The notes under the pieces are model-generated. The model worked only from the letters and a program-made list of their open reading frames with translations. It searched no databases and had not been told where the DNA came from. Position numbers and translations under genes: made by a program. 64,000 bases of DNA from a virus, in the IMG/VR virus record IMGVR_UViG_3300003771_000090, positions 3,902 to 67,901 of that record; one strand, 5' to 3'. Position 1 is the first letter of the stretch, and every line of letters begins with the position of its first letter. Shown in pieces: positions 3,849 through 55,443 of the stretch.

Positions 3849-4003
3849 TGGGCTGTTCTCCGCTGCCCGCCGTGTTATCCGGCAGTGATCAGATGAGCAC
3901 AATGCTTTAACGCGTTTGGAGTAGCGCCCACACCCCCATTTGGTTGGAGGCAGTAGTGTTTGTGGGGAATCTGGCAGATGCGTTTGCCACGGCCGCGCAA
4001 AAC

Positions 4004-37378: not shown

Positions 37379-38386
37379 ATGGCATCCTTTCAGAAAGTGG
37401 CGAAGGGCTGGCGAGTGCAGATTGCTATCAAGGGTCAGCGCGATAGCCGAATTTTTCCGAACAAGTTGCTGGCCACCGAGTGGGCGGCCCACCGCGAGGC
37501 CGATCTTCGCTCCATCGACAACCGCCAGGGCAGCAAAACCCACACCATCGGCGACGTCCTCGACGACTATCAACGCAAGATCAGCCCGACCAAGCGCGGC
37601 GCCCGGTGGGAAAAGCTCCGCCTGGACCTCATTGGCCGCAAGGAGGTTGAGGGCAGTCGCTTCCGCGACATCCTTCTGGTCAATCTGCGGCCCGCCCACA
37701 TCGCCGCCTGGCGCGATGCCAGACTGCGCGATGGCGTGGCCGGGTCGTCTGTGTCCCGCGAGATGTCCCTGCTGTCGCACGCCCTGCAGGTGGCGCGCAC
37801 CGAATGGGGCTGGCTGGTGACGGATCCGATGAAAGAGGTGCGCCGGCCGCCCGACAATCCGCCGCGTGAGCGCCTGGTCCCCCAGGCGGAGATCGAGGCG
37901 GTACTTATCGCCCTCGGGTACATAGAAGGCATGCCGGTCGTGCGGGCGTCCCAGCGCGTTGCCGTGGCGTTCCTGTTTGCGCTGGAGACGGCCATGCGGT
38001 CAGGCGAGATCCTTGGCCTGACCAGCTTCACAGTGGATTTTGAGCGACGGGTGGCGCGGCTGCCGCTGACCAAGAACGGCCTGGCGCGGGAGGTGCCGTT
38101 GTCGACTCGCGCCATCGAGCTGCTGCGGATGCTGCCGGCGGTGAACGAAGGGGCGCCGCTGTTCAGCCTGGTGCCGGCCAGCCGCGACGCGCTGTTCCGC
38201 AAGGCCAGAAACAAGGCCTGCATCGCGGACCTGACGTTCCACGACACGCGGCACGAAGCCATCACGCGCCTGGCGAAGAAACTGCAGCCGCTGGATCTGG
38301 CCCGGATGACGGGCCATACCAACTTGCAGGAGCTGATGACTTACTACAACGAGTCGGCGTCCAGCATCGCGCAGCGCCTGGGCTGA
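37379..38386 (+). CDS. int: Tyrosine integrase
   Basis: ETAMRSGEI, TKNG, FHDTRHEAITRL, TGH...YYN; TCCCCA repeats upstream (about 37351-37379) are possible arm sites. Confidence 0.95.
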   Translation: MASFQKVAKGWRVQIAIKGQRDSRIFPNKLLATEWAAHREADLRSIDNRQGSKTHTIGDVLDDYQRKISPTKRGARWEKLRLDLIGRKEVEGSRFRDILLVNLRPAHIAAWRDARLRDGVAGSSVSREMSLLSHALQVARTEWGWLVTDPMKEVRRPPDNPPRERLVPQAEIEAVLIALGYIEGMPVVRASQRVAVAFLFALETAMRSGEILGLTSFTVDFERRVARLPLTKNGLAREVPLSTRAIELLRMLPAVNEGAPLFSLVPASRDALFRKARNKACIADLTFHDTRHEAITRLAKKLQPLDLARMTGHTNLQELMTYYNESASSIAQRLG

Positions 38387-43653: not shown

Positions 43654-44112
43654 ATGAAGAAAGAAAAAAGCGATCTGGTTGTTGACGGAGATGTGGGCCA
43701 GGTGGTGATGGCGTCGAGCGTGGTGTACCACGCGGGCAGCGGGCCAGGGCAGGTCAGCAACGCCATAAATATGGCCGGCTCAGTAGAGCGGGCCAACGCC
43801 GGCACTGAGCCCGGAAGTAAGCCCTCGGCCAAGTGCCACAAGTGCGCCGCAGTAGCGCAACGCTTCCGCCGGATCAAGCTGGCCGTGGCCCTCGCCGCAG
43901 CGGCTGCGTGCGGGGCTCTTGTAGCCACTGTCCGAAGCCACTTCGCGGAATGCGAACCAGCTCAGGCGGTGGCAAGCCAGTGCCATTTCGATGGTCGGCA
44001 ATACTCAGCCGGCAGCATCGTCAAGATGTCCGATGGCCTGGCCCGAGAGTGCCTGGAGTCGGTCGGCGGCAGGGCTCACAGATGGTCGGAGTTTGCGCTG
44101 CGACCGATCTAG
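43654..44112 (+). CDS. Single-TM protein in the lysogeny operon
   Basis: N-terminal GDVGQVV, CHKC, TM segment, C-terminal CHFDGRQYSAG...C small domain. Confidence 0.75.
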   Translation: MKKEKSDLVVDGDVGQVVMASSVVYHAGSGPGQVSNAINMAGSVERANAGTEPGSKPSAKCHKCAAVAQRFRRIKLAVALAAAAACGALVATVRSHFAECEPAQAVASQCHFDGRQYSAGSIVKMSDGLARECLESVGGRAHRWSEFALRPI

Positions 44113-44239
44113 GTTTTTCGAATCGAAGCGCCCCCCAAATTGTCCGTGGTTCATGTCGACGCCACGGATCACAACCCGGAACACCCGTTTGCCTGATGTT
44201 CTGGCATGCGGGCTTGCGCCGGAATGGGAGGATGTATCG

Positions 44240-44944
44240 ATGGCTCTGTTGAATTGCACCGAATGCAACAAGGAAATCTCCGACAAGGCACCCGCATGCC
44301 CGCATTGCGGCGTAAAGAGGAAGTCGAAGCTTAAAGAGGTGCTCGCCGGTGTTGTGGGTATCGCCGTTGTGATCGGCGTACTGGCTCAATGCGTGGGCAG
44401 TCCAGAGGACCAGAGCGATTCAAAACAAGTTGGCCCAGCCGTGGAAAAGTCAGGGGAGGCAAAAGGGGACGCAACTGCCGCCGTCACCACTGCCACCATC
44501 GGCCGTAGCACCGACGAGGTGTTGGGAAATCTCACCGTTATCGAACGCTCCCCAAGCGTCCCCTTGCGGGACGGCAGCTCGCGCGAGTCCATCAAGTTGG
44601 GCAAGTATCTCCATCTCGAAACGGTTGGAGATCCGGCCGACTTGGTTGCGTACACCATGATGTTCGGGGCACCGAGCGACGACAAGCCGGCGGCGGTTCA
44701 GGCCACCATGTACGTAGGGGAAGTCCTGGCAAACACGTTTCCGCATTGGGGGAAAGCGGGCAATGGCGATACTGTTGGGAAATGGATGGTGACCGCCTCA
44801 AAACAACTCAGCGCGAATGTCAGGAAGAACAAGGACGACCCCGATCCTGTGATCCTGGAGCGAGATGGGCTTCGCATCCGTTACACGGCAAACACGTTCC
44901 TCGGACTGTTCTTTATTACGGTGGAGCCGCTGGCCGCTTCATAG
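44240..44944 (+). CDS. Zn-ribbon + TM + periplasmic-domain protein
   Basis: CTEC...CPHC, TM VLAGVVGIAVVIGVLA, then a soluble domain. Confidence 0.85.
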   Translation: MALLNCTECNKEISDKAPACPHCGVKRKSKLKEVLAGVVGIAVVIGVLAQCVGSPEDQSDSKQVGPAVEKSGEAKGDATAAVTTATIGRSTDEVLGNLTVIERSPSVPLRDGSSRESIKLGKYLHLETVGDPADLVAYTMMFGAPSDDKPAAVQATMYVGEVLANTFPHWGKAGNGDTVGKWMVTASKQLSANVRKNKDDPDPVILERDGLRIRYTANTFLGLFFITVEPLAAS

Positions 44945-44948
44945 CCGA

Positions 44949-45662
44949 TCACCGCAGTCGTGCAGAAGCACTGGCATGATACGCCGCCTCAATCTCACAC
45001 CCCACCCACCGATGCCCGTGCTCCTTCGCCGCAGCCAGGAACGTGCCTGAGCCGGCAAAGGGATCGCAGACAACGCTGCCGGCCGGCACCAGGCGCACGA
45101 CCTCGCGGGCCAGGCCGGCGGGCTTCTGCGTCATGTGAGATTTCGGCCGTGGCAGGCGCTCCGCGAACACACCCGGCAGATGCACCTTATGGTCGGTACG
45201 CACCGCACCCTTCGTCGCCCGCACCATGAATTCCGCCTGCTGCGAAAACCCGCCCAGGCGCGGCCGGGCGCCGCCGGCGGTCTTGTCCCAGACAGCCACG
45301 CTGCGCCAGATGAAGCCCGCGCCCTGGACGGCATCTGTCAGGCTCGGCAACTGCCGCCAGTCGATGAAGCAGACCAGGTGGCCACCATCCTTGGCAGCGC
45401 GGAACGCCTCGCTCAGCCAGTTCATGCACCAGTAGGTCCAGGACCGCTGATCCTTGTTGTCGTGGCTGAACTCAGGATAGACGGTCTTAACGTCCGCGCC
45501 GATGTACTTCTGGCCCGGTGCCTGGGTGCGGGTGCTGGAATGCAGGCCGCCGGACGAGTAGGGCGGGTCGGTGAAGAATAGGTCAACGGACTGGTCGGGC
45601 AGCCCGCGCAGCATGTCAAGGGCGTTGCTTTGGTAGAGGCGGTCGAGCTTCATGGCGGGCAT
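44949..45662 (-). CDS. Amino-DNA (N4C/N6A) methyltransferase, beta class
   Basis: TDPPY motif IV before DPFAGSG motif I; HMTQKP. Confidence 0.95.
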   Translation of the reverse strand: MPAMKLDRLYQSNALDMLRGLPDQSVDLFFTDPPYSSGGLHSSTRTQAPGQKYIGADVKTVYPEFSHDNKDQRSWTYWCMNWLSEAFRAAKDGGHLVCFIDWRQLPSLTDAVQGAGFIWRSVAVWDKTAGGARPRLGGFSQQAEFMVRATKGAVRTDHKVHLPGVFAERLPRPKSHMTQKPAGLAREVVRLVPAGSVVCDPFAGSGTFLAAAKEHGHRWVGCEIEAAYHASASARLR

Positions 45663-45822
45663 CTCCGGTACACGAAGCTCGCGGGCTCTCGGGTCCGGGG
45701 CGCTCGGCCCTCAGCTGGTTCATCGTGCCGCAGCGCGGGCACTTGATGGCAAGGCGAATGTACTCCCCCATGCCAAGCTTGCGGTTGCAGCTACCGCAGC
45801 GGATTTCCTGCATGATTTGCAC
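45616..45822 (-). CDS. com: Com-family Zn-ribbon regulator
   Basis: EIRCGSCNRKL...IKCPRCGTMN; overlaps the MTase start. Confidence 0.85.
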   Translation of the reverse strand: MQIMQEIRCGSCNRKLGMGEYIRLAIKCPRCGTMNQLRAERPGPESPRASCTGDARHEARPPLPKQRP

Positions 45823-46002
45823 TCCCAGCGTGTGCTAGGATGCCTGCGCCTCGCGAGGTGGCGCGGCCCTGGCCGGACTGGCAGGCTGGTGCTGCTGGAA
45901 CGGGGCGTGGTTGGTGCTCCAACACCAGTCACGTCGCCGCGTCTTTCTTTCTGCTGACGAATCGATTGTCACGCGCGCGTGCGGGGAGCGCACATGGAGC
46001 CT

Positions 46003-46025
46003 GTAGTTGCTCACACGCTTACAAC
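46003..46025 (-). promoter_or_regulatory. Ogr-type late promoter site upstream of com-MTase
   Basis: GTAGT-N13-ACAAC; same as the sites upstream of FI and V. Confidence 0.6.
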
Positions 46026-46265
46026 AACGCGACAGCGCGGGAAGTCTGGCGCTTCCAGGAAGAAATGCTGGAGAGCCGGCTGACGGCAGAGTTCGGCCAG
46101 TCTCGGCCATTGCCTATGGACTCGCGAGCGTCAGTTGTGCAGTCACGAAGCGACGTTGACTAGGGCTACGGTCGCTCATATAACGTATTGACTTGAACGT
46201 GAAGCAGCACGTCCGAATCGGCTGGCTATGGAGCGCGCCATCGAAGAATCTTCTTTAGGCAAGTA

Positions 46266-46754
46266 CTAATTCCACAAACCGCCCAGCCCTGCATCCGCAG
46301 CATGCCCTTCGGCGCTGTCGGAGGCACTACTTTCCTTAATCAACTCCAGGAACGAAACAACCGCCTCGGCCTGCTCTGCGGCAAAGCTCATTCGATACTC
46401 CTTCCAGTCAGAACGAGGCTCATACTTGGGATTATCCGGAAGCAGAGCGTCCAGTGCCAAGTACGAATAGTCACTGTCCTGTAGGACCCCAACTAGGAGC
46501 GAAGGCAAATAGTATTTGAAGAAGCCACTATCTGTAGCGCGACGGATGGCAGAAGGACTTATGCTGCGAATCCAGTGGTCAAGTGATATCTCCGTCCACA
46601 TCCGTCCATAGAACTTCTGAACATCATCGTCCACCTCGTAGTTTGCGATTCCATCATCCCGCCTATGACCCGACGGAATTGGAACGATAGCGAAGGCCGC
46701 TCGAATAGTTGACTGCAATTGTGCAGACCGACGCGCGTATTCGTTAAATTCCAT
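46266..46754 (-). CDS. DUF6714-like putative toxin-immunity protein
   Basis: WTEIS...GFFKYYLPSLL motif. Confidence 0.7.
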   Translation of the reverse strand: MEFNEYARRSAQLQSTIRAAFAIVPIPSGHRRDDGIANYEVDDDVQKFYGRMWTEISLDHWIRSISPSAIRRATDSGFFKYYLPSLLVGVLQDSDYSYLALDALLPDNPKYEPRSDWKEYRMSFAAEQAEAVVSFLELIKESSASDSAEGHAADAGLGGLWN

Positions 46755-46843
46755 TGCAAATATCTACCTGTTGTACAACTTTTACCCAATCCCTTTGATG
46801 TGCCTTGTCACCGCCACGGAAGCAAACGGATTCGGCGAGGTTG

Positions 46844-47482
46844 TCATTGAGCGATCGCGGCTGAGCGCGCATACCTCATCGAACAGACGCTCGTGAGTTG
46901 TAAGGTGGCGTCTACCCTATACGCTGCAATGCCTTGCCACTTCTCGGCATTCTCTATGAGAATCGCAAACGTCGCGTTGTGCCAGTTGCGGTAGAAAACG
47001 TAGGACCCGCGACAGTTGCCAGCCTCCGCCGACAATTTATCGAGATCAGGGCTCCTGATCAGCCGATAGCCGCCATCAGCACGCTGCAAGTAAGAATCTC
47101 TTATGCACCTGGCCGAACCAACGTATCGAGCGACTCTCACAATCGGTACGGGCCTTCCAGCAATCGCTATGCGGGAAATGTGCCCCATCGCGCCGACGTA
47201 AGCCAGTAGCTCACCCTTCAGCGCTACCGTGTCCGGATGAGTGGGTTGGTCTGACAAATATCGCTCTGCAGAGATACTACCGGGGGAGCATGGCCCAAGG
47301 TCTGGGAAACAGAGCGTCGTCTTTCCGACCACCCGCTGGGACTCTGCTCCACCGTTAGCGTCAATTCGAGCCGCTTCCTCGTGGAAATGGGCACAGGTAT
47401 CGCTTGCGCCGACGGCATTGCTGCATTCCAAAAGAATCAGCAGACCGGCGCAGGCCCGAACCGCCCAGCCGAAGATAGCCAC
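46844..47482 (-). CDS. Secreted hypothetical protein
   Basis: Signal-peptide-like N-terminus, multiple Cys. Confidence 0.7.
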   Translation of the reverse strand: MAIFGWAVRACAGLLILLECSNAVGASDTCAHFHEEAARIDANGGAESQRVVGKTTLCFPDLGPCSPGSISAERYLSDQPTHPDTVALKGELLAYVGAMGHISRIAIAGRPVPIVRVARYVGSARCIRDSYLQRADGGYRLIRSPDLDKLSAEAGNCRGSYVFYRNWHNATFAILIENAEKWQGIAAYRVDATLQLTSVCSMRYARSAAIAQ

Positions 47483-47721
47483 AGCGCCTCCCCCAATTCA
47501 CTGAAGCTGACAATCTACCAACGACTCGCTCCTCGCCCAAATACGCCGAAGTGGGGTGTCGGGGTTGCACAACACACGTGAGCGAACCTCTTTCCGAAAG
47601 CGTCGGATGCTACGAGCTATAGCTTCGGGATCGCGCGTCCACGCCCATGCCTGCGTAGCACCGAATGACCGGTTCGGCTAAACAGCAGCCGATTGCAGGC
47701 CAGAGCGGGAATGTCGGAGAC

Positions 47722-47788
47722 GGGTCGCGAACCGCCGATTGAGCTGGACCAAGCCTGTGAATGAGGGCCGACAACCGGGCCCGGCCAG
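47722..47788 (+). repeat. 67-bp direct repeat A, copy 1
   Basis: 56/67 identical, ungapped, to 48497-48563 (hand alignment). Confidence 0.9.
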
Positions 47789-47843
47789 TTGCCGCCGGTC
47801 GCGAATATCGGTTTTTCGGGTAGTCTGAACGACTTTTCCAACG

Positions 47844-48359
47844 GTGTGGAATGCAGATGACCAAAGCACTACGTATCGGACGAGCTTTATGAAGGTTGTC
47901 CACTACGCAAAAAACGCGCCCTGGATCGGCGCAATGAAGTGTCCGTCGTGCGCACGATTAACGCCTGCGTGGCAATCAAGTGGTATGAGCGAGAGCTTTC
48001 CCCACTTCTATTGCGACACCTGCTCAAACGTTCTTCACCGCGAGCAAGACAAAGAGCTCGTGTATCCATCGGAGCCCACGCAGGAGCTGCTTGACCGTAT
48101 TGCGGCCACGTTGCCGAAGTGCCCCTGCGGAGGGCAATTCCGTCCAGGTGCAAATCCAAAGTGTCCGCACTGTCATGTCGAATTCACCCATCACTGGAAT
48201 CCTGTTCAGCGCTTGATAGCCGGCCAAATGGTCTTGCTCGATGGAGCCTGTCTTATTCGAGATCGACTGTATTCGTATCGAATTTCCATCGGATCTAAAC
48301 CCAAGTACTGGTTTCGCACCCTACGAAACGGGCTAGCGCTTCATTTCGGCGGCCGGTGA
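47844..48359 (+). CDS. Multi-Zn-ribbon hypothetical protein
   Basis: CPSC, CDTC, CPCG and CPHC motifs. Confidence 0.8.
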   Translation: MWNADDQSTTYRTSFMKVVHYAKNAPWIGAMKCPSCARLTPAWQSSGMSESFPHFYCDTCSNVLHREQDKELVYPSEPTQELLDRIAATLPKCPCGGQFRPGANPKCPHCHVEFTHHWNPVQRLIAGQMVLLDGACLIRDRLYSYRISIGSKPKYWFRTLRNGLALHFGGR

Positions 48360-48496
48360 ACTCGAAGCTAAAGCGGTAAACGTCCAGGCGTTTGGGTCGG
48401 ACTATTCGTAGTCCGCAGGTGCATGTCCCGTCTTCACTAGCAGTCGAGCTGCCAGTCCTACCAGGATCGATGAAAGCGAGACGGAGTATCTATATT

Positions 48497-48563
48497 GGGT
48501 CGCAAACCGCCCCTTGAGCCGGGCTTAGCCTGTGAATGAGGGTCGACGACCGGGTCCGGTCAG
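48497..48563 (+). repeat. 67-bp direct repeat A, copy 2
   Basis: See copy 1. Confidence 0.9.
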
Positions 48564-48638
48564 GAACCGATGTTGGACGGAGAGGGGAAGATTGGTAGCA
48601 ATCCCACACTCTAGGGATGACGGTACGAGGCGCTTGCT

Positions 48639-49034
48639 ATGGAAGAATGGGAATCTCGCCTGGGTGTCCTTGCTCAGTCAGAATTGCTCAGAGCTGTTGC
48701 TGCGAGCGTAATAGCAGATTACGGCGAAGACATTTCGCCAACAGTGCTGCACGGAGGCCTTGGCCGAACTCTTGCTCGCGACTTCAATTCGCTATCGACG
48801 ACTGAGAAAACCCAAGTTTTCGATGCGATCGAAGATGCCATGAATAGCGACGATGTGAACCGGCTAGCGCTAGTCGCCACGGGACTTCTTGAAGCACTAT
48901 TTACGGCGTCTGTAGCGCGATCCCACTGGGAGCAAGTTATGCCGTTTCTCGGCATGAAATCAAGTAGCTACCTCTCAGCTTGGGCTCGGTGGGGAGAAGA
49001 CGCGGCCTCGAACGGCCGCTTTGCGGGAAATTGA
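48639..49034 (+). CDS. Immunity-like hypothetical protein (DUF7674-like)
   Basis: VFDAIEDAM...VATGLLEAL; stop codon lies inside repeat B. Confidence 0.7.
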   Translation: MEEWESRLGVLAQSELLRAVAASVIADYGEDISPTVLHGGLGRTLARDFNSLSTTEKTQVFDAIEDAMNSDDVNRLALVATGLLEALFTASVARSHWEQVMPFLGMKSSSYLSAWARWGEDAASNGRFAGN

Positions 49035-49112
49035 CTGGCAACTTAGGATCGGTCAGAGAGCGATGGCCATGGCAGCGGGCACTCGGTAGACCGAGGCCGG
49101 CCAGAAGCGGCC
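49010..49112 (+). repeat. 103-bp direct repeat B, copy 1
   Basis: 73/103 identical, ungapped, to 49946-50048; last 30 bp 27/30. Confidence 0.85.
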
Positions 49113-49218
49113 GCTCACATGCAGGCCTGGATTGCGCATAATCCCAGTCTTGCCGCTGCAGTTGCTGCGCGGGGACTGCTTTGCACTCCCGTGACTGCAA
49201 CGCGCTGAACGTGGCGTC

Positions 49219-49677
49219 TTATCTGTATATTCTGATTATTTGAACGTTGCACATCGAATCAAGCATGCTCGCCTGATCCGCTATCTCTTCCCCATCGTAC
49301 TTCGTAATTTGGGGGCGCCACCAAGCGCTATTTGGTCCGAGCTCATACGTAAGCCGATATTTTGCTCCGGCTTCTGCGAGAAACCGCATTTCTGCGACTT
49401 CTGACTTTCGACAAAGAAGAAGAAATTGCGCTGCGAGTTCATGCTCGCCGGGCAGCATTTCAATTATCTCTCGGCGTTTCCCCGCGGAATGTACTAGAGC
49501 TCTCTCGCCAGACCCAGCCACCCTACTATCGAAACGATGCACAGCCACATGCGGATCGACATAAAGCTGAGCCACGCTGCCAGTATCCCTTTCCTGTCCC
49601 TCATATAGTTTTACCCTTGAATAGACGGTACATCCAGAGAGTGCAACCGCTACAAGAATGGCGAAAGTAATCCGCAT
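49219..49677 (-). CDS. Lipoprotein
   Basis: MRITFAILVAVALSG-C lipobox. Confidence 0.8.
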   Translation of the reverse strand: MRITFAILVAVALSGCTVYSRVKLYEGQERDTGSVAQLYVDPHVAVHRFDSRVAGSGERALVHSAGKRREIIEMLPGEHELAAQFLLLCRKSEVAEMRFLAEAGAKYRLTYELGPNSAWWRPQITKYDGEEIADQASMLDSMCNVQIIRIYR

Positions 49678-49945
49678 TTCCGCGTGCATTAAAAATTTTG
49701 CGATGGAAGATTATACGCGATCAACACGTAGCCATGCCTTCGATCAATTCGATGTGGCTTAATGACAATCGTCCTGTGGCAGATAGCTTGTTGGAGAGAT
49801 GCGGCTTCCGGCTTGACGGGACCCGTCCTAACTCGCGGGCACTGGAAAGACGAACATGATTCGGCGCCGATATACAAAATGTGCAAGCGCCGAGAGCTAC
49901 GAGACGTTTCCCTGCGTTGGGCTGGGCCATCTCGCTAGGCCTTGC

Positions 49946-50048
49946 GAATGACCGCTTTGGAGAAATCTGGCGGGCCGTTATGGGTCGGTCTGCGACTGCT
50001 GACCACAACGGCGTGCAGTCGGTCGGCCGAGTCCGGCCAGAAGCGGCC
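49946..50048 (+). repeat. 103-bp direct repeat B, copy 2
   Basis: See copy 1. Confidence 0.85.
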
Positions 50049-50174
50049 ATCCGCCGAGGCAAGAAGCGGCTGTTGTAGGGGCCGATCTGCTCACCCAGCC
50101 GACTAGCTCTCGGCTAGACTGAATTCTTTCGAGTTCGAAGTTATCTCAGTTGCTCATCAAGAAACCATTGGGAG

Positions 50175-50552
50175 GTGGTGATGAATGAGGACATTGATCG
50201 CAAAGAGTGGAGACAGCTCTATGACGCAGTGCGGGTCACCTGCTCAGAATATGGAAAGGAAGATTCGTTCGGAACCAAAGATTTCTGGATTTCTGATGAT
50301 AACTGGGGAGGAGTGACACAGACGCTTGTGGTGACATCCCCCTATTTTGTTTGCCCAAAATTGATCTCAGATCTGGCGGACTGCATCGCCAAGAACAAAT
50401 TATATGGGGCTCAAATAATGGTGATCCTGGCGTTCGCCTCACCGGATATGGGGTTGTTGATTGTTGGCTCCAAAGGGGCGACTGAAGAGTGGAATCTTGA
50501 CGCGCTAAGAGAGCGGTACGGCAAGAAATTCTACACAGATAAGGATCGCTAG
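50175..50552 (+). CDS. Immunity-like hypothetical protein
   Basis: 125 aa acidic, DFWISDDNWG; GGGAGG SD. Confidence 0.7.
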   Translation: MVMNEDIDRKEWRQLYDAVRVTCSEYGKEDSFGTKDFWISDDNWGGVTQTLVVTSPYFVCPKLISDLADCIAKNKLYGAQIMVILAFASPDMGLLIVGSKGATEEWNLDALRERYGKKFYTDKDR

Positions 50553-50731
50553 CCGCGGCTCGCACCATGGTGTCCGTGCGTGGGTGGGCCGACAGCCGCG
50601 TTCGGCCATGAGCGGCCGGTCGACATCTCCGTCAAGATGATCGAAAATTGCTCTCTTCCTATTAACGGACGGGTAGGCAATCTTGAGCGTTAACTCAGAT
50701 CTCATACGAGAGAAGATTCACGCAGCCGCTT

Positions 50732-50971
50732 ATGCGGAGGCATATTCTCTCGGGTCGCATGGCGCTGGAAGTTTGCCCGAACGACCACGAAGTAACCACC
50801 GCGTTGGGCTATTTGACCGCAGAGCTACGTTGGATCTGCATGGATCTGGCGACGCGAAGGATGGACTACGGTCACGAGTATTGCGTGCTAGAAAGTCTGC
50901 TGAGAGAAGCAAGCAAACTCACCGGCCAAGACTTGTATGGGCAAACATTAGTCTCGCCGCCTAGTCAGTAG
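50732..50971 (+). CDS. Short hypothetical ORF or gene remnant
   Basis: 79 aa; no clear SD or recognisable motif. Confidence 0.35.
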   Translation: MRRHILSGRMALEVCPNDHEVTTALGYLTAELRWICMDLATRRMDYGHEYCVLESLLREASKLTGQDLYGQTLVSPPSQ

Positions 50972-51000
50972 TTGTGAGGCGTCCAAAGCGCGGCGCGCGT

Positions 51001-51038
51001 GTCCGCTTCGGAGCAACCTGACAGGCCGCTTGGGGTCG
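51001..51038 (+). repeat. Partial repeat B, copy 3
   Basis: 29/38 identical to 49950-49987; ends 11 bp before the gpD stop. Confidence 0.75.
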
Positions 51039-51049
51039 ATACACGACCT

Positions 51050-52183
51050 TCAGGACTCGTCGGCAACTTCCGTACCACGAGTGGCCGCTTCCATCTCTAA
51101 CGCCGATGTGAATCCATTCCCCGAGTATGCGTGCGTAACCTTTGCGACCACCCACCCCGCCCCATCAATCTCCGTCTTCCACCCCCTCACGCTCGCCGCC
51201 AACTCCGGAAACACCTCCGGCCGCCCTCGAGCCAGGGTGATCCGGAACGACGCGACCCCACGTTGGATCCTCTGCCATTCCGCCCGTGCTGCGCGTTCGG
51301 CGTTGGACTTGGTGGCATAGGTATGCCGCAGGACTTTCACATTATCGGGATCGGAATTCACCAGGACGTCAGCCGCCGACGGCTTCTCGGTCGATGCTGA
51401 ACCGGTTGAGGTCTTGGACTCGGTCGACCCACCCACCACCACTTCACCTTTCTCTGCCCGCCGTGCGTCCTGGTAGTACGCCTTCACGCCGTTGTAGTTG
51501 TCCCGATCCGCGACCGTAAAGCTGTGGGTGTCCCCGCTGGCCCGTGTGATCGTAACGGTGGGCAGCGGCACGCCTGACGCGCTCTGCGCCGCGCCGGTGC
51601 TGATGAACAGCAGCTTGCCTTGCTTGACCGTGGCGATGGCGTCGTGGTCCTTAGCCAGGCGCGTGAGGAAGTTGGCATCCGATTCGCCGGTCTGATCTAT
51701 ATGGTCGATGACCAGGTGGTCGAGGGCGGCGGCGATTGCGGCTGTCAGGCCATGCCGCGCGGCGATGGCCCGGACGATGACGCCGATGGTTTGGCCGCGG
51801 TACGACTGTTCCTTGCGCGTGGTAAGGCCGCTGGCGAGGTCGGCGCTGCGGGCGCGGATGGTTAGGCGGTCTGGTGGGCCGGTGTGTTCCAGCTCGTCGA
51901 CCTTGTACGTGCCCTTGTCGACCACGCCCGTGTCCTGCCAGCCCAGGGCCAGTGACAGCGTGGCGCCTTTGTCGGGCAGGTCGAGCATACCGTCTGCATC
52001 GTCCAGTTCGATGTCCAGCTGGTCGGCCTCGAAGCCACGGTTGTCGGTCAGCGTCAGGGAGATCAGCCGGCCCTGGAAGCGGCTGGTGATGTCGTGCTTC
52101 CCCTGCATCAGTCGGTACACGGGCACAGCGGCGGTGCCGGAGATGCTGTCGGGCAGGGTGGTGGTCGGCGGGATGGCTGTCAT
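51050..52183 (-). CDS. gpD: P2 gpD-like late control/baseplate hub protein
   Basis: LTDNRGFEADQLDIELDD, HIDQTGESD, GRPEVFPE. Confidence 0.95.
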   Translation of the reverse strand: MTAIPPTTTLPDSISGTAAVPVYRLMQGKHDITSRFQGRLISLTLTDNRGFEADQLDIELDDADGMLDLPDKGATLSLALGWQDTGVVDKGTYKVDELEHTGPPDRLTIRARSADLASGLTTRKEQSYRGQTIGVIVRAIAARHGLTAAIAAALDHLVIDHIDQTGESDANFLTRLAKDHDAIATVKQGKLLFISTGAAQSASGVPLPTVTITRASGDTHSFTVADRDNYNGVKAYYQDARRAEKGEVVVGGSTESKTSTGSASTEKPSAADVLVNSDPDNVKVLRHTYATKSNAERAARAEWQRIQRGVASFRITLARGRPEVFPELAASVRGWKTEIDGAGWVVAKVTHAYSGNGFTSALEMEAATRGTEVADES

Positions 52184-52620
52184 AGGCCTGGTGTTGTGCG
52201 TGGCAGCATACCGAGGAGACCGCCACCGATGACATCCTCGGCCTGGCCGTCCACTCGCGTCAGCCGAACGGAAAACTCGATGCGCCGCGCCTTGCCGTCG
52301 CGGAAGAAGAGGGTGCGGGTGATCGACAGCGAGTCAATTTCGAACATGCCGTAGTAGCGGCCCGAGCCCTCGATCAGCACGTATGGCTGGCCGGTGTCGC
52401 CCATCTGTCGCAGGAGGTCGATGGTGTTGTCACCGCCGCTCAGCTCGGGCAGCAGCACGCCGGACAGCGACACTGTCTCGTCGTCCAGGCCGGTGTACTG
52501 CCGCGATGGCCGGCGACCCACCCGATTGTTCGACGGGTGGCGCCAGCCGATCTGCTGCTGGAATTCCTGGTAGGGCGCCGTCTCCAGGGCGAAGACGAAC
52601 AACCCGAGGGCCATCATCAT
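52180..52620 (-). CDS. gpU: P2 gpU-like tail protein
   Basis: MMMALGLFVFALETAPYQ...QYTGLDDETVSLSG. Confidence 0.95.
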   Translation of the reverse strand: MMMALGLFVFALETAPYQEFQQQIGWRHPSNNRVGRRPSRQYTGLDDETVSLSGVLLPELSGGDNTIDLLRQMGDTGQPYVLIEGSGRYYGMFEIDSLSITRTLFFRDGKARRIEFSVRLTRVDGQAEDVIGGGLLGMLPRTTPGL

Positions 52621-52623
52621 GGG

Positions 52624-55443
52624 TCAGTCCCTGTCGGTGAGCCGGGATCGGGCGCGGGCGGCGCGCTGCCCCTCCAGCCGCTCGATCCGCTCGGCCACCA
52701 GGCGCGCGATCAGCTGCTCGTCGGCGCCGGCCGGCGGGTGGATGTGGATGACGACCGGCGCCGGAGCTGCCGCCGGCGCGGCACTCGCGGCGCGGGAGGG
52801 GCCTGCGATGGGCGGACGGGTGTCGAACCGGACGGCTGCGGTCGCCTGGCCGGTGCCGATGGCAAGTCCTGCCCCAACGCCGGCCATCGCCGTGGCGACG
52901 CGCGAGACGACGCCCAGCGGGCCTTGCTGTCCCCGCATGAGACCTTGCTCCAGCCCCTGCATGGTGAAGCCGCCCAGCGCGGCGAAGACGCGGCTGGGGG
53001 AGCGGATGCCGAGTTTGTCTTTGAACCAGCCAATGGTCTTGTCGGCCACTCCGCCAATGGCGTCTTTCACCCAACCAATCGCGCCGGTGATGCCATCAAC
53101 CAGTCCGCGCATCATCATCCGGCCGAAGTCGGAGAACTTGGCAGGCATGTCAAAGCCGAACCAGCTCATGACAGCGGCGAAGGCCTTGTAAAACAACCCA
53201 ACTGGTGACCAGTTCAGGATAATTGCCGCCACGCTACCGACGCCGCCCTCGCATGCCTCAGTCACGGCCCTCCAAAGTCCGAGGAAGAACGTCTTGATAG
53301 GCTCCCAGTGCTTGATCAGCAGATAGGCGCCCAGAGCGATGGCGGTAACGGCCAAGCCGATGGGATTGAGCATCAGGGCGCGACCTACGATCCAGAAAAT
53401 CTTCATGAGGAAGTTGAATGCACCGGCCAGCCGGGTAACGATGCCCACGCCACCGCCGAGCTGGATTCCCAGCATCGACATCCCGTAGCGCACGATCACT
53501 AGCGGGCCCAACGCCGCCGCCAGTGCCAGCGTCAGGGCGCCAAGCACCGTTAGCAACGCACCCACGGCCGCGGCGCCTTTGAGGAGCCAGGACACCAGCT
53601 GCGGATGCGCCTGGGTAAAGGCGTCGAAGCGGTCGATCAGGCGTCCCACCGTATCCATCAGCCCGACGAGCGTCGAGCGCAGCGCCTCGCCGCCGGCGCT
53701 GCTGGTGTTGAACAACTGGTTCTGCAGGCGCTGCCAGCGGGCGGAAACAGTGTCTTGCCGCGCGGCGAACTCGCGCGACATGGAGCCCTTCGCCTTCCCA
53801 CCGTTGGCAAGGTCGAGTTGGCGCCGCAGCTCGTCGGGCTTGTCGACCAGCTTGGCCAGGGTGTCGGAGTGCTCCATGCCGGCCAGCTCAACCATTACAC
53901 CGATGCGCTTGTCCTTGGGGAGCCTTTGGATAGCCTCAATGACCGAAAATATCGTGCCCATCGCATCGGTACCCATGCCTTTCTGGATAGCCTCGGAGGA
54001 GAGACCGATTTCGGCCACAGCGGATTGAAATCGCTTCGTGCCTTTCTCGGCCGCTGCGAACTTTTGCGTGATCGCGTTGATGGCTGTGCCAGCGGTTTCG
54101 GTGCGTTCGCCGAGCGTCAGTAGCGTGGAGGCGAGGGCCGCCGCATCATTCGCGGACATGGCCACCGTGGACACCACGCCAGACGTGCGGTTCAGTACGT
54201 TGATGATGTCGTTGCCCTTGCTGATGGCGTTGTCGTCGAGGTAGTTGATCGTGTCGGCCAGGCCCATGATGGCGCCAGTGGGGATCCGAAAGTTCTTGGC
54301 GACCTTGCCCATGCTCTCGGCGATCTCGTCTGGCACGGCATCAAAGGCGGTGGCCATCATGGCAACGGTACGGGTGTAGGCGATCAGTTCCTCTCTCGGT
54401 ACTTCCATGCGGGCGCCAGCTGTGACCATCTCGGCGATACGGGCGGTGGGGATCGACAGGTCCTTGCCCAACTGGCGGATCTCGCGCGCCATGTCGTGAT
54501 AGACCTTCGTCAGCTTGCCGTGCTCGTCGCGCGCGCCTGGCACTTGACGGGCGATGCCGAGCATGGCGTCTTCGAAGGTGACGTAGTCCTTGACGGTCTT
54601 GGCGACGGGTGCCAAAACAATCCCGCCGGCGGCGGCAGTCGAAGCGCCAGCATTGAGCACTGTATTCCGCATTGCCATGCTGTTTCTGTACTTGGTTTGG
54701 GCAGCGGCGAGAGCCCGTTGACGGTCGCCAACCGCCCTCAGCAGCGCTTCCTGTTGCCGGAGCCGTTGGTTTGCACCGGCGAGTCTGTCGGCCAGGTCGC
54801 GCTGATGTTGGCCCAGATCCTTTGTTTTTATGCCAGCGGCCGTCAGGCCGCCACGCATGTCACGCAGCTTGCGAATGTTGTCTGCGTGCGCGCCGCGCAG
54901 CCTCTGGGCCTTGTTTGTCGCATCCGAGACCTCCCGCTGCAGGGCGCGGTACTGTGTGGACGTGACGGACACCTGAGAGGCGGCAGCCTTGTGCGCTGCC
55001 ATCAGGCGGACGACTTCCTTGCGAGCTGCCAACTGTTCAGTGGTCAGTTTTCGGTAGGCTTCGGAACTGTGTGCGCCGGCGCGCTGCAATGCCTGGATCG
55101 TAGCGATGTTGGCGTTGTATGCCGCCCGGGCCGACTTGAGCTGGGACGCCAGCTGCGACTTGGTGCGCATGGGGGCATCAAGCTTGTCCAGCCGGGCTCG
55201 CAGAGAGGCCGCGTGATCGTTGGCATTGCGCATAGCCAGCGAACTGTCCTTGAGGCCCCGTTTAAGCTCCCGGAAATCCGCCAGTTGCTTTTGAGATGCC
55301 TCGAGGCTCTTGATCTGAGCCTTGGCCGCCTTCACCGTTCTGGCCAGTTCAGTACTGCCGTCCATGATCGCCTTGAACGGCCGCGTCATCTTGTCAACCG
55401 CCTGCAGCACGACTTCCAGCCTGAGGTTTCTCGGGGTGCTCAT
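52624..55443 (-). CDS. gpT: P2 gpT-like tape measure protein
   Basis: LRLEVVLQAVDKMTRP; 939 aa; C-terminal RSPSRVF. Confidence 0.95.
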   Translation of the reverse strand: MSTPRNLRLEVVLQAVDKMTRPFKAIMDGSTELARTVKAAKAQIKSLEASQKQLADFRELKRGLKDSSLAMRNANDHAASLRARLDKLDAPMRTKSQLASQLKSARAAYNANIATIQALQRAGAHSSEAYRKLTTEQLAARKEVVRLMAAHKAAASQVSVTSTQYRALQREVSDATNKAQRLRGAHADNIRKLRDMRGGLTAAGIKTKDLGQHQRDLADRLAGANQRLRQQEALLRAVGDRQRALAAAQTKYRNSMAMRNTVLNAGASTAAAGGIVLAPVAKTVKDYVTFEDAMLGIARQVPGARDEHGKLTKVYHDMAREIRQLGKDLSIPTARIAEMVTAGARMEVPREELIAYTRTVAMMATAFDAVPDEIAESMGKVAKNFRIPTGAIMGLADTINYLDDNAISKGNDIINVLNRTSGVVSTVAMSANDAAALASTLLTLGERTETAGTAINAITQKFAAAEKGTKRFQSAVAEIGLSSEAIQKGMGTDAMGTIFSVIEAIQRLPKDKRIGVMVELAGMEHSDTLAKLVDKPDELRRQLDLANGGKAKGSMSREFAARQDTVSARWQRLQNQLFNTSSAGGEALRSTLVGLMDTVGRLIDRFDAFTQAHPQLVSWLLKGAAAVGALLTVLGALTLALAAALGPLVIVRYGMSMLGIQLGGGVGIVTRLAGAFNFLMKIFWIVGRALMLNPIGLAVTAIALGAYLLIKHWEPIKTFFLGLWRAVTEACEGGVGSVAAIILNWSPVGLFYKAFAAVMSWFGFDMPAKFSDFGRMMMRGLVDGITGAIGWVKDAIGGVADKTIGWFKDKLGIRSPSRVFAALGGFTMQGLEQGLMRGQQGPLGVVSRVATAMAGVGAGLAIGTGQATAAVRFDTRPPIAGPSRAASAAPAAAPAPVVIHIHPPAGADEQLIARLVAERIERLEGQRAARARSRLTDRD

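Follow-up and report, generated by a model that had tools for sequence, protein, structure and literature searches.

We analysed a window of 64,000 nucleotides (positions 3,902 to 67,901 of the IMG/VR virus record IMGVR_UViG_3300003771_000090), which is part of a 72.7-kb provirus record, and focused on an array of small gene cassettes separated by short repeats that sits inside a P2-like prophage of Cupriavidus. The preliminary description of this window had placed the array between the com promoter and the stop codon of the phage gene gpD, and Pfam matches bear out com, its neighbouring methylase gene and gpD (Table 1). Upstream of com lies a TGT...ACAACA dyad, probably a late-promoter activator site, which is the final element in common with more distant relatives. 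In three relatives without cargo (L003, L007 and L033) the dyad lies within a few bases of the gpD stop codon, and in Ralstonia P2-like phages the methylase gene directly adjoins gpD; therefore, we regard the ~4.9 kb at 46100-51032 as inserted cargo. The GC content is 0.49-0.58 inside the region versus 0.62-0.67 outside, and seven open reading frames (ORFs) in mixed orientation were found within it, which agrees with the short, AT-richer genes reported before. As in moron hotspots, low-GC non-phage genes stand between conserved phage genes, and the three closest relatives differ in their cargo.

The array consists of six low-GC cassettes with five co-oriented full cores between them, and half-cores on both phage flanks. 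Each full core is exactly 58 or 66 nt long, reads on the + strand, begins with GG(G/A)TCG and ends with CGG(C/T)CA. The GG(G/A)TCG modules listed in the preliminary description (47722, 48394, 48497, 49046, 49982 and 51033) and its GG(C/T)CA modules (46095, 47783, 48558, 49099, 50035 and 50604) are all present in the sequence. The paired spacings of 61, 61, 53 and 53 given there are also correct, while a GGATCG at 50543, the partner of the 50604 module at a spacing of 61, had been overlooked. Repeat finding and blastn grouped the cores into subfamilies, with B and C 84% identical over 67 nt and D and E 71% identical over 104 nt. Two host genomes each hold copies of core B with 78-97% identity at 4-5 places outside phages, and relatives of the type II core are present in L002 and L075. 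The array holds 5 units in 4.9 kb (one strand), ~25 times the density that a loose regular expression gave for 1.24 Mb of related DNA, where it counted 0.077 per kb (both strands). A profile of the 3' module found significant copies within the 72.7-kb contig only in this region, in keeping with the earlier impression that the phage core genes lack such modules. The imperfect hairpins once attributed to several modules did not hold up, as their stability was no better than that of shuffled sequence (DNA folding z of -1.9 to +1.1 for eight sites on both strands).

Table 1 Features of the cassette array and its surroundings (window positions unless a locus is named).
Feature	Position	Strand	Details and basis
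N6/N4 DNA methyltransferase, mom-like partner of com	44949..45662	-	Pfam N6_N4_Mtase, E 1e-28; conserved left neighbour of the hotspot
Com zinc-ribbon translational regulator (Mu-type com)	45616..45822	-	Pfam Zn_ribbon_Com, E 9e-16
TGT...ACAACA dyad upstream of com	46002..46027	not assigned	Sequence
Left half-site A	46040..46099	+	Core-like only in the 3' 22 nt, ending CGGCCA; alpha junction between 46099 and 46100
Cassette 1, two genes	46100..47721	genes on -	46266-46754 (DUF6714), 46844-47482 (no family)
Core B, type I, 66 nt	47722..47787	+	Repeat finding; unit pattern
Cassette 2	47788..48496	+	171-aa Cys-rich gene 47844-48359; degenerate core at 48394 and empty module downstream of the gene
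Degenerate core GGGTCGG...GCTGCCA (~61 nt), then 42-nt 'empty' module	48394-48496	+	Sequence
Core C, type I, 66 nt	48497..48562	+	Last bases CGGTCA; repeat finding; unit pattern
Cassette 3	48563..49045	+	131-aa gene 48639-49034; ORF list
Core D, type II, 58 nt	49046..49103	+	First bases GGATCG; repeat finding; unit pattern
Cassette 4	49104..49981	-	156-aa gene 49219-49689; ORF list
Core E, type II, 58 nt	49982..50039	+	Repeat finding; unit pattern
Cassette 5	50040..50542	+	125-aa gene 50175-50552; stop codon of the gene inside core F
Core F, 66 nt	50543..50608	+	First bases GGATCG; unit pattern
Cassette 6	50609..51032	+	93-aa gene 50683-50964; K arms match 10/14
Right half-site G (GGGTCG + 10 nt)	51033..51048	+	Beta junction between 51032 and 51033, 17 nt from the gpD stop
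gpD tail/baseplate hub protein	51050..52183	-	Pfam Phage_GPD; conserved right neighbour
Immunity genes of L054, SUKH-1 (SMI1_KNR4) and Imm33-like	L054:11632-11949, L054:12040-12387	-	Cassettes at the hotspot

The boundaries between cores and cassettes follow one design. In the 28 aligned junctions at which a cassette follows a core (alpha junctions), the core end ...CCGnGnC is followed by the hexamer CGGCCA and then by a conserved start of the next cassette, which we call the K arm (consensus nTAGCGGnCAT). The hexamer is nearly invariant, both here (CGGCCA in 26/28) and at the boundaries where a core follows a cassette (beta junctions; GGGTCG in 16/20). When the beta junction was reverse-complemented, both of its arms fitted the alpha arms best in register 0, with a hexamer reading CGACCC and not CGGCCA. 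Beta is thus the inverted alpha structure, so that cassettes carry imperfect terminal inverted K arms and cores carry inverted core arms; the K arms of cassette 1 match at 10/13 positions, and those of cassette 2 of L001 at 11/15. Comparison of the core arm with the reverse-complemented K arm gave a score of 0.401 in register 0, against at most 0.314 in the other registers and 0.262 +/- 0.034 in a shuffle null. This match lets the junction be read as an imperfect 14-6-14 palindrome around an asymmetric spacer, which is the usual design of tyrosine-recombinase core sites. Alpha and beta sites alternate in orientation along all arrays, and the bounding sites are asymmetric, as is required of dif modules. 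Which core stands next to which cassette is not fixed: at least six different right-hand cassettes and eight different left-hand ends were found joined to the type I core, and the bases just after the junction vary (GTT, GAA, TGA, TTT, AAA). A strict junction pattern proved too narrow, giving 4 matches in 5 genomes. As a side observation, an empty module of 63 nt comparable to that in cassette 2 lies between two cores in L001 (L001:11849-11911).

A search with the gpD protein retrieved two close relatives of the prophage with a gpD identity of 95%, one in Cupriavidus sp. D384 (L001/L053) and one in strain 25mfcol4.1 and a metagenome (L002/L054). The window, L001, L002 and L054 have their phage flanks in common up to the same bases and carry different cargo between them. 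The left flank, whose 3' half is core-like, terminates with ...TTCGGCCA (at 46099 in the window), and the right flank starts with GGGTCGATACACG. Homology to these three loci stops at 46099-46101 in half-site A and resumes at 51020-51033 in half-site G. Contigs of other organisms diverge from half-site A at 46093/46094, and its 22-nt core end recurs at a chromosomal junction in L083. Single cassettes of the window were also met elsewhere: cassette 1 is present in two other organisms (runs X3 and X4) with an identical left edge, cassette 4 occurs in another context in run X3, where the contig diverges at 49097, the start of CGGCCA, and core B together with the cassette 2 gene is 96% identical in L001. 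Further variants of this prophage were not found, as the scan of viral contigs gave only L001 and L002 and that of metagenomes only the L002 type. In run X1, from the probable source metagenome, a high-depth contig joins 47805 (after core B) to 50587 (core F) and omits 2,781 bases; the join, with 21 letters on one side, could be either a repeat-induced assembly join or a real alpha-alpha deletion variant.

The comparison of L002 with L054 resolves an exchange to the base. The two loci are 99.95-100% identical across ~19 kb save for one block, of 1,921 bp in L002 and 1,294 bp in L054, which begins right after the last core base (of CGGCCA) and ends right before the first base of the right half-site (GGGTCG). 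The block in L002 is a cassette of ~1.9 kb, with a cassette length of 1,934 bp, a Rid-family gene and a LysR gene, hereafter cassette Y, and it is 100% identical to a chromosomal segment (L072) of the genome that carries L054. Further copies were found on a 334-kb conjugative C. pauculus plasmid (95% identity) and in another genome (89%). All copies start with TTTTGCG... directly after ...CGGCCA and finish with ...CCGAGAA directly before GG(G/A)TCG; the sequence outside these edges is unrelated, and the cassette has four different downstream cores in its four contexts. Four genomes share, at 98-99.6% identity, a cassette with a MocR-type regulator together with the 65-nt core downstream of it; here the homology stops at the end of CGGCCA on both sides, and the following cassettes differ. 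Gain, loss and swap breakpoints, which the preliminary description had suggested testing for a fixed base in the repeat, thus lie at fixed bases of the repeat edges in orthologous prophages, a chromosome and a plasmid. Separately, the C. pauculus conjugative plasmid (NZ_CP033971.1:270000-293000, L091) carries a 20-kb run of one- or two-gene units with long intergenic gaps; these units consist of a regulator and a small enzyme, and junctions are recognisable only at cassette Y.

We then followed the sites across genomes with R1, a sequence-only covariance model of the alpha junction. Five genomes of 6-7 Mb gave 9-22 matches each at E<=0.1; at E<=1e-3 the counts were 0-11 per genome. The matches in the five genomes form co-oriented clusters with a spacing of 0.4-4 kb beside variable low-GC accessory genes, so that the repeats are low in copy number and not scattered genome-wide, a pattern on which the earlier proposal depended. 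At E<=1e-3, R1 matched 53/78 Cupriavidus genomes and 30/121 family-level genomes, and 24 of these 30 lie outside the genus in other Burkholderiaceae. The type I core itself was detected by BLAST in 12/78 species-representative genomes of the genus. Three loci outside the genus carry the alpha junction (CGGCCA, then a K arm), of which L097 also has a core starting with GGGTCG. Matches in the plasmid scan were confined to Cupriavidus records.

For the search of a responsible enzyme, we inspected the arrays, the contig and the host genomes. No recombinase was found adjoining the arrays, and the contig encodes only two prophage integrases, both of the tyrosine type (G000:C1:589-996 of the provirus record and window 37949-38356). 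All genomes checked have XerC- and XerD-like genes. A single conserved, syntenic Y1_Tnp gene (RAYT-like, HUH motif HIHLV) was found in each of five Cupriavidus genomes, for example at L084:1606-2409 (G002:C34) and L085 (G001:C5); it is flanked by AT-rich TTAAATGGGG repeats, which are unrelated to the junction motifs, and the motifs themselves were not found in its flanks. No IntI was detected in the contig and four host genomes, the best TIGR02249 score being 83 bits versus a cut-off of 265. This score belongs to a 277-aa frame (G001:C12:86607-87074) that matches the N-terminal half of the model (TIGR02249 positions 13-170) and is not near any array; it lies well above the scores of Xer N-terminal regions, and the frame may be a fragment of an IntI-like gene.

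Known families of repeats and sites were also screened. Rfam gave no match in 44000-53000 (E<=1), and the motif, folding and copy-number tests were likewise negative for attC and for repetitive extragenic palindromes (REPs), so that the repeats match no known attC, REP or Rfam family, as had been suspected. An attC identity was rejected because no RYYYAAC start or GTTRRRY end exists, the sites beginning with GG(G/A)TCG and finishing with CGG(C/T)CA; the earlier statement that attC cores and IntI are absent therefore stands. Classical REPs were rejected on copy number (9-22 per genome and not ~100+), on the lack of a stable stem-loop and on the Y1_Tnp flanks without motifs, and a scan for CGTC/TGTC with an 8-10-bp stem revealed no recurrent family of CGTC-type REPs (PMC3733652) in ~400 kb of loci. 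The host dif-like site is AT-rich (CTCATAATCTATCTTATGTTAAAT); the junctions are GC-rich, unrelated to this sequence and without resemblance to a chromosomal dif site (XerC arm, 6 nt, XerD arm ...TTATGTTAAAT). Promoter and terminator sequences showed no clear enrichment (6 vs 2.9 and 7 vs 4.7). Two further candidates were dropped: ends of the IS66 type (GTAAGCG), since only some K arms begin with GTAA and no 8-bp duplication was seen, and a tRNA-like CCA end, which lacked acceptor-stem complementarity.

Sequence comparison thus establishes the anatomy of the sites, their alternation, the fixed breakpoints and a recent swap between phage and chromosome. Taken together, base-fixed breakpoints, one design in two orientations with two hexamers, an orientation rule without exception and the free combination of cores and cassettes would be explained most simply by conservative site-specific recombination. 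We assign a probability of roughly 55% to the reading that the repeats are recombination sites for a trans-acting conservative recombinase, of which we infer the class, the hexamer-restricted pairing and the action in trans. The preliminary description had proposed recombination sites served in trans as well; the breakpoints at repeat edges support this proposal, and the enzyme would presumably act from elsewhere. In the proposed mechanism, sites of ~34 bp (a 14-nt core arm, the hexamer and a 14-nt K arm) would divide the region into exchangeable modules. With the orientation alternating, each gene cassette lies between two inward K arms and each 58/66-nt core between two core arms; the alpha site left of a cassette has CGGCCA, and the beta site on its right has GGGTCG, which reads CGACCC once its arms are turned the same way. 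Strands would be exchanged in or beside the hexamer by a conservative recombinase of the tyrosine type whose gene lies elsewhere, and presumably only between equal hexamers, so that alpha would pair with alpha and beta with beta. Two DNAs could therefore swap a cassette, either by itself or along with an adjoining core, without inversion or loss. Arrays of these sites on chromosomes and plasmids would supply the P2-like prophage with its cargo.

Several points weigh against this reading, and two of them qualify counts that speak for it. Among the 72 internal homology ends of 21 loci, 20 are no more than 10 nt away from a junction predicted by hidden Markov models, compared with 0.5% for random positions, an enrichment that is not fully independent because the models were partly built from homology-break junctions. 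Joints at which the homology of each partner stops at a junction match in junction type and orientation in 22/22 cases, a count over pairs that are non-independent events. The dyad symmetry of the sites is modest, with a pair count weakly above that of slid controls (49.6% vs 30-42%), and the arms are degenerate, so that some sites may be inactive scars. Some breakpoints also lie off-site: homology between the window and L001 copies of cassette 2 ends just past the stop codon (window 48364, L001:11206), and the 3' K arms of the two copies differ, which suggests that cassettes are also remodelled by off-site events. All-against-all clustering of ORFs from 12 array places found no recombinase that recurs near the arrays, the families in common being LysR, SDR and one other. 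Finally, the basis of the reading is wholly comparative; neither circles nor cointegrates nor events in vivo were observed, and the run data are in the form of contigs.

These points leave room for explanations in which the repeats spread or break in another way. The repeats could belong to an element of ~90 nt (K' arm, core, K arm) resembling a transposable element of the miniature inverted-repeat kind (MITE) or a REP doublet forming a hairpin (REPIN), which was spread by a transposase such as a RAYT-like Y1 (HUH) enzyme, cassette exchange being a side effect of cleavage and rejoining at its ends. We hold this to be unlikely, although the whole element has imperfect terminal inverted repeats of ~19 nt, its cores have inverted ends, same-type cores are 78-97% identical at several loci as expected of a spreading element, and the conserved Y1_Tnp gene is there in all five genomes. 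REPs of the CGTC type with a CCA tail, for which no transposase is known, are also described from C. taiwanensis (PMC3733652). A MITE was nevertheless rejected among the candidates, as the inverted ends come without a visible target-site duplication and arms and core are combined independently of each other; when cores change, the K arms remain with their cassettes, so the element is not mobile as a unit, which weakens the earlier suggestion of a MITE-like family seeding the hotspot. Its 9-22 copies per genome are not the hundreds expected, and the absence of a stable hairpin, of motifs beside the Y1 gene and of a CGTC-tagged stem-loop family in the loci scanned speaks against it too. An abundant K'-K palindrome as a pre-existing target had fewer matches than the control; as uninterrupted palindromes of this kind are not enriched, the cores are not insertions into an abundant palindromic target.

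Somewhat less likely again is an origin without any dedicated enzyme, in which regulatory or terminator repeats would be carried along with accessory genes and joined by short-homology or illegitimate recombination, for instance at gyrase/topoisomerase cleavage hot spots or by template switching, and then selected. REPs and bacterial interspersed mosaic elements (BIMEs) are gyrase targets and recombination join points, which we counted for such an origin, along with the intergenic position of the sites directly after stop codons, the 6-13 nt of identity available at every junction and the breakpoints away from sites. However, the break falls on the same base at more than 20 junctions, where the non-homologous side shares nothing but the hexamer, both ends of a cassette are exchanged together under a strict orientation rule, and the sites neither fold nor resemble terminators or promoters above chance. 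Such precision in a 100%-identical recent transfer would be hard to obtain from microhomology. A cluster of attC sites lacking an integron integrase (CALIN), served by an integrase elsewhere, has the matching layout of gene, site, gene, with co-oriented sites of 58-66 nt (within the attC size range) and imperfect inverted ends, and the MocR cassette does travel with its downstream site. We consider it very improbable, given that the sites have no RYYYAAC or GTTRRRY cores and no significant hairpin, that the IntI score falls far below the cut-off, that cassette Y does not retain its own site and that crossovers occur at both ends of a site.

Regarding the cargo, searches of Pfam, NCBIfam, PHROGs and a protein atlas gave the DUF6714 match in one gene as the sole match for the cassettes of the window. 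In the sister prophage L054 (strain 25mfcol4.1), cassettes at the hotspot encode SUKH-1 (SMI1_KNR4) and Imm33-like proteins. Both confer immunity to polymorphic toxins, and the phage may therefore shield its lysogen when bacteria compete with one another. Genes of the chromosomal arrays, again small and low in GC, encode a glyoxalase, TetR, MOSC, a LuxR-type response regulator and a DUF4917/SIR2-like protein. The last of these (L086:6411-7496 in G073:C2, GC 0.48) lies within a chromosomal cluster of three co-oriented junctions and is a candidate anti-phage defence gene. Another observation concerns the ~100 nt downstream of the type I core B, which are 94-96% conserved at four loci (window 47788-47891, L001, L070:10071-10172 and L074:805-907). 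The genes that follow differ, since the window and L001 have the 171-aa gene and L070 and L074 a different one, and this conserved leader travels with the core.

Among known systems, the Acinetobacter dif modules (pdif sites) are close in several respects. They are Xer-dependent, occur on plasmids, and reportedly react only between sites with identical or near-identical spacers (PMC13141974, PMC6449649). As in our array, short asymmetric sites (arm, 6-nt spacer, arm) separate discrete gene modules, alternating sites yield two module classes that are each bounded by like arms, the same module occurs in unrelated contexts, and the enzyme is encoded elsewhere, as we infer it to be here. They differ in that the junction sites described here are GC-rich and unrelated to the AT-rich dif-like sequence of the host, that every second module is a gene-free core of 58-66 nt, and that dif modules are on Rep_3 plasmids whereas the present arrays are in a prophage, chromosomes and a megaplasmid of Burkholderiaceae. 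Integron arrays and CALINs likewise have small promoter-poor accessory genes between co-oriented sites of ~60 nt, cargo that is highly variable among close relatives, and no need for an integrase in cis. Unlike them, our array is without attC core motifs, folded structure or IntI, a cassette does not carry its site along, both edges of a site serve as breakpoints, and the genes are in mixed orientation. Engineered recombinase-mediated cassette exchange with heterospecific lox or FRT sites uses flanking sites that are equal in their arms and different in their spacers, and achieves double-crossover exchange without excision or inversion, as proposed for the array; here the arrangement would be a natural one, and the hexamer-restricted pairing is suggested by the 22/22 consistent joints.

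Mosaics of REPs, BIMEs and Neisseria intergenic mosaic elements are also intergenic, lie downstream of genes and combine short inverted motifs with spacer units of 50-150 nt, and the CGTC-tagged REPs share the unit end CCA and have no known dedicated transposase (PMC3733652). Our array differs from them by a copy number at least ten times lower, by the absence of a stem-loop and by its tie to precise cassette boundaries. Moron hotspots of P2-like Burkholderia phages (PMC2920897) have low-GC foreign genes between conserved late genes, with different cargo at the same place in related phages; the published ones were described without a repeated junction site or an entry mechanism, whereas the entry points here are base-exact. 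The design is a variant of modular exchange at short alternating sites, and what is new is the site sequence and the setting in a temperate-phage hotspot. No description of these sites was found in the literature searched by motif and concept, which is not proof of absence.

How morons and other accessory genes get into fixed phage hotspots is a long-standing question, since the hotspots are well catalogued and the entry mechanisms mostly are not. In the present case each point of entry can be placed at a single base, host chromosomes and a conjugative plasmid have these junctions too, and a 100%-identical cassette links prophage and chromosome. The whole-cassette swaps at repeat edges point to an undescribed site-specific route by which phages acquire genes. 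If a dedicated recombinase is indeed involved, integrons and Acinetobacter dif modules would be joined by a third natural cassette system, with its own site type and operating in soil and opportunistic Burkholderiaceae, which would also provide a natural example of heterospecific-site cassette exchange. The junction sites are short enough for direct reporter constructs. As a wider and more tentative proposal, which we rate at a little under even odds, the Burkholderiaceae may possess a module-exchange system in which a putative host recombinase acts on heterospecific sites of ~34 bp (CGGCCA/CGACCC) and shuffles single-gene modules among chromosomes, megaplasmids and temperate phages, and which may also be the source of morons, including interbacterial immunity genes, for this P2-like lineage.

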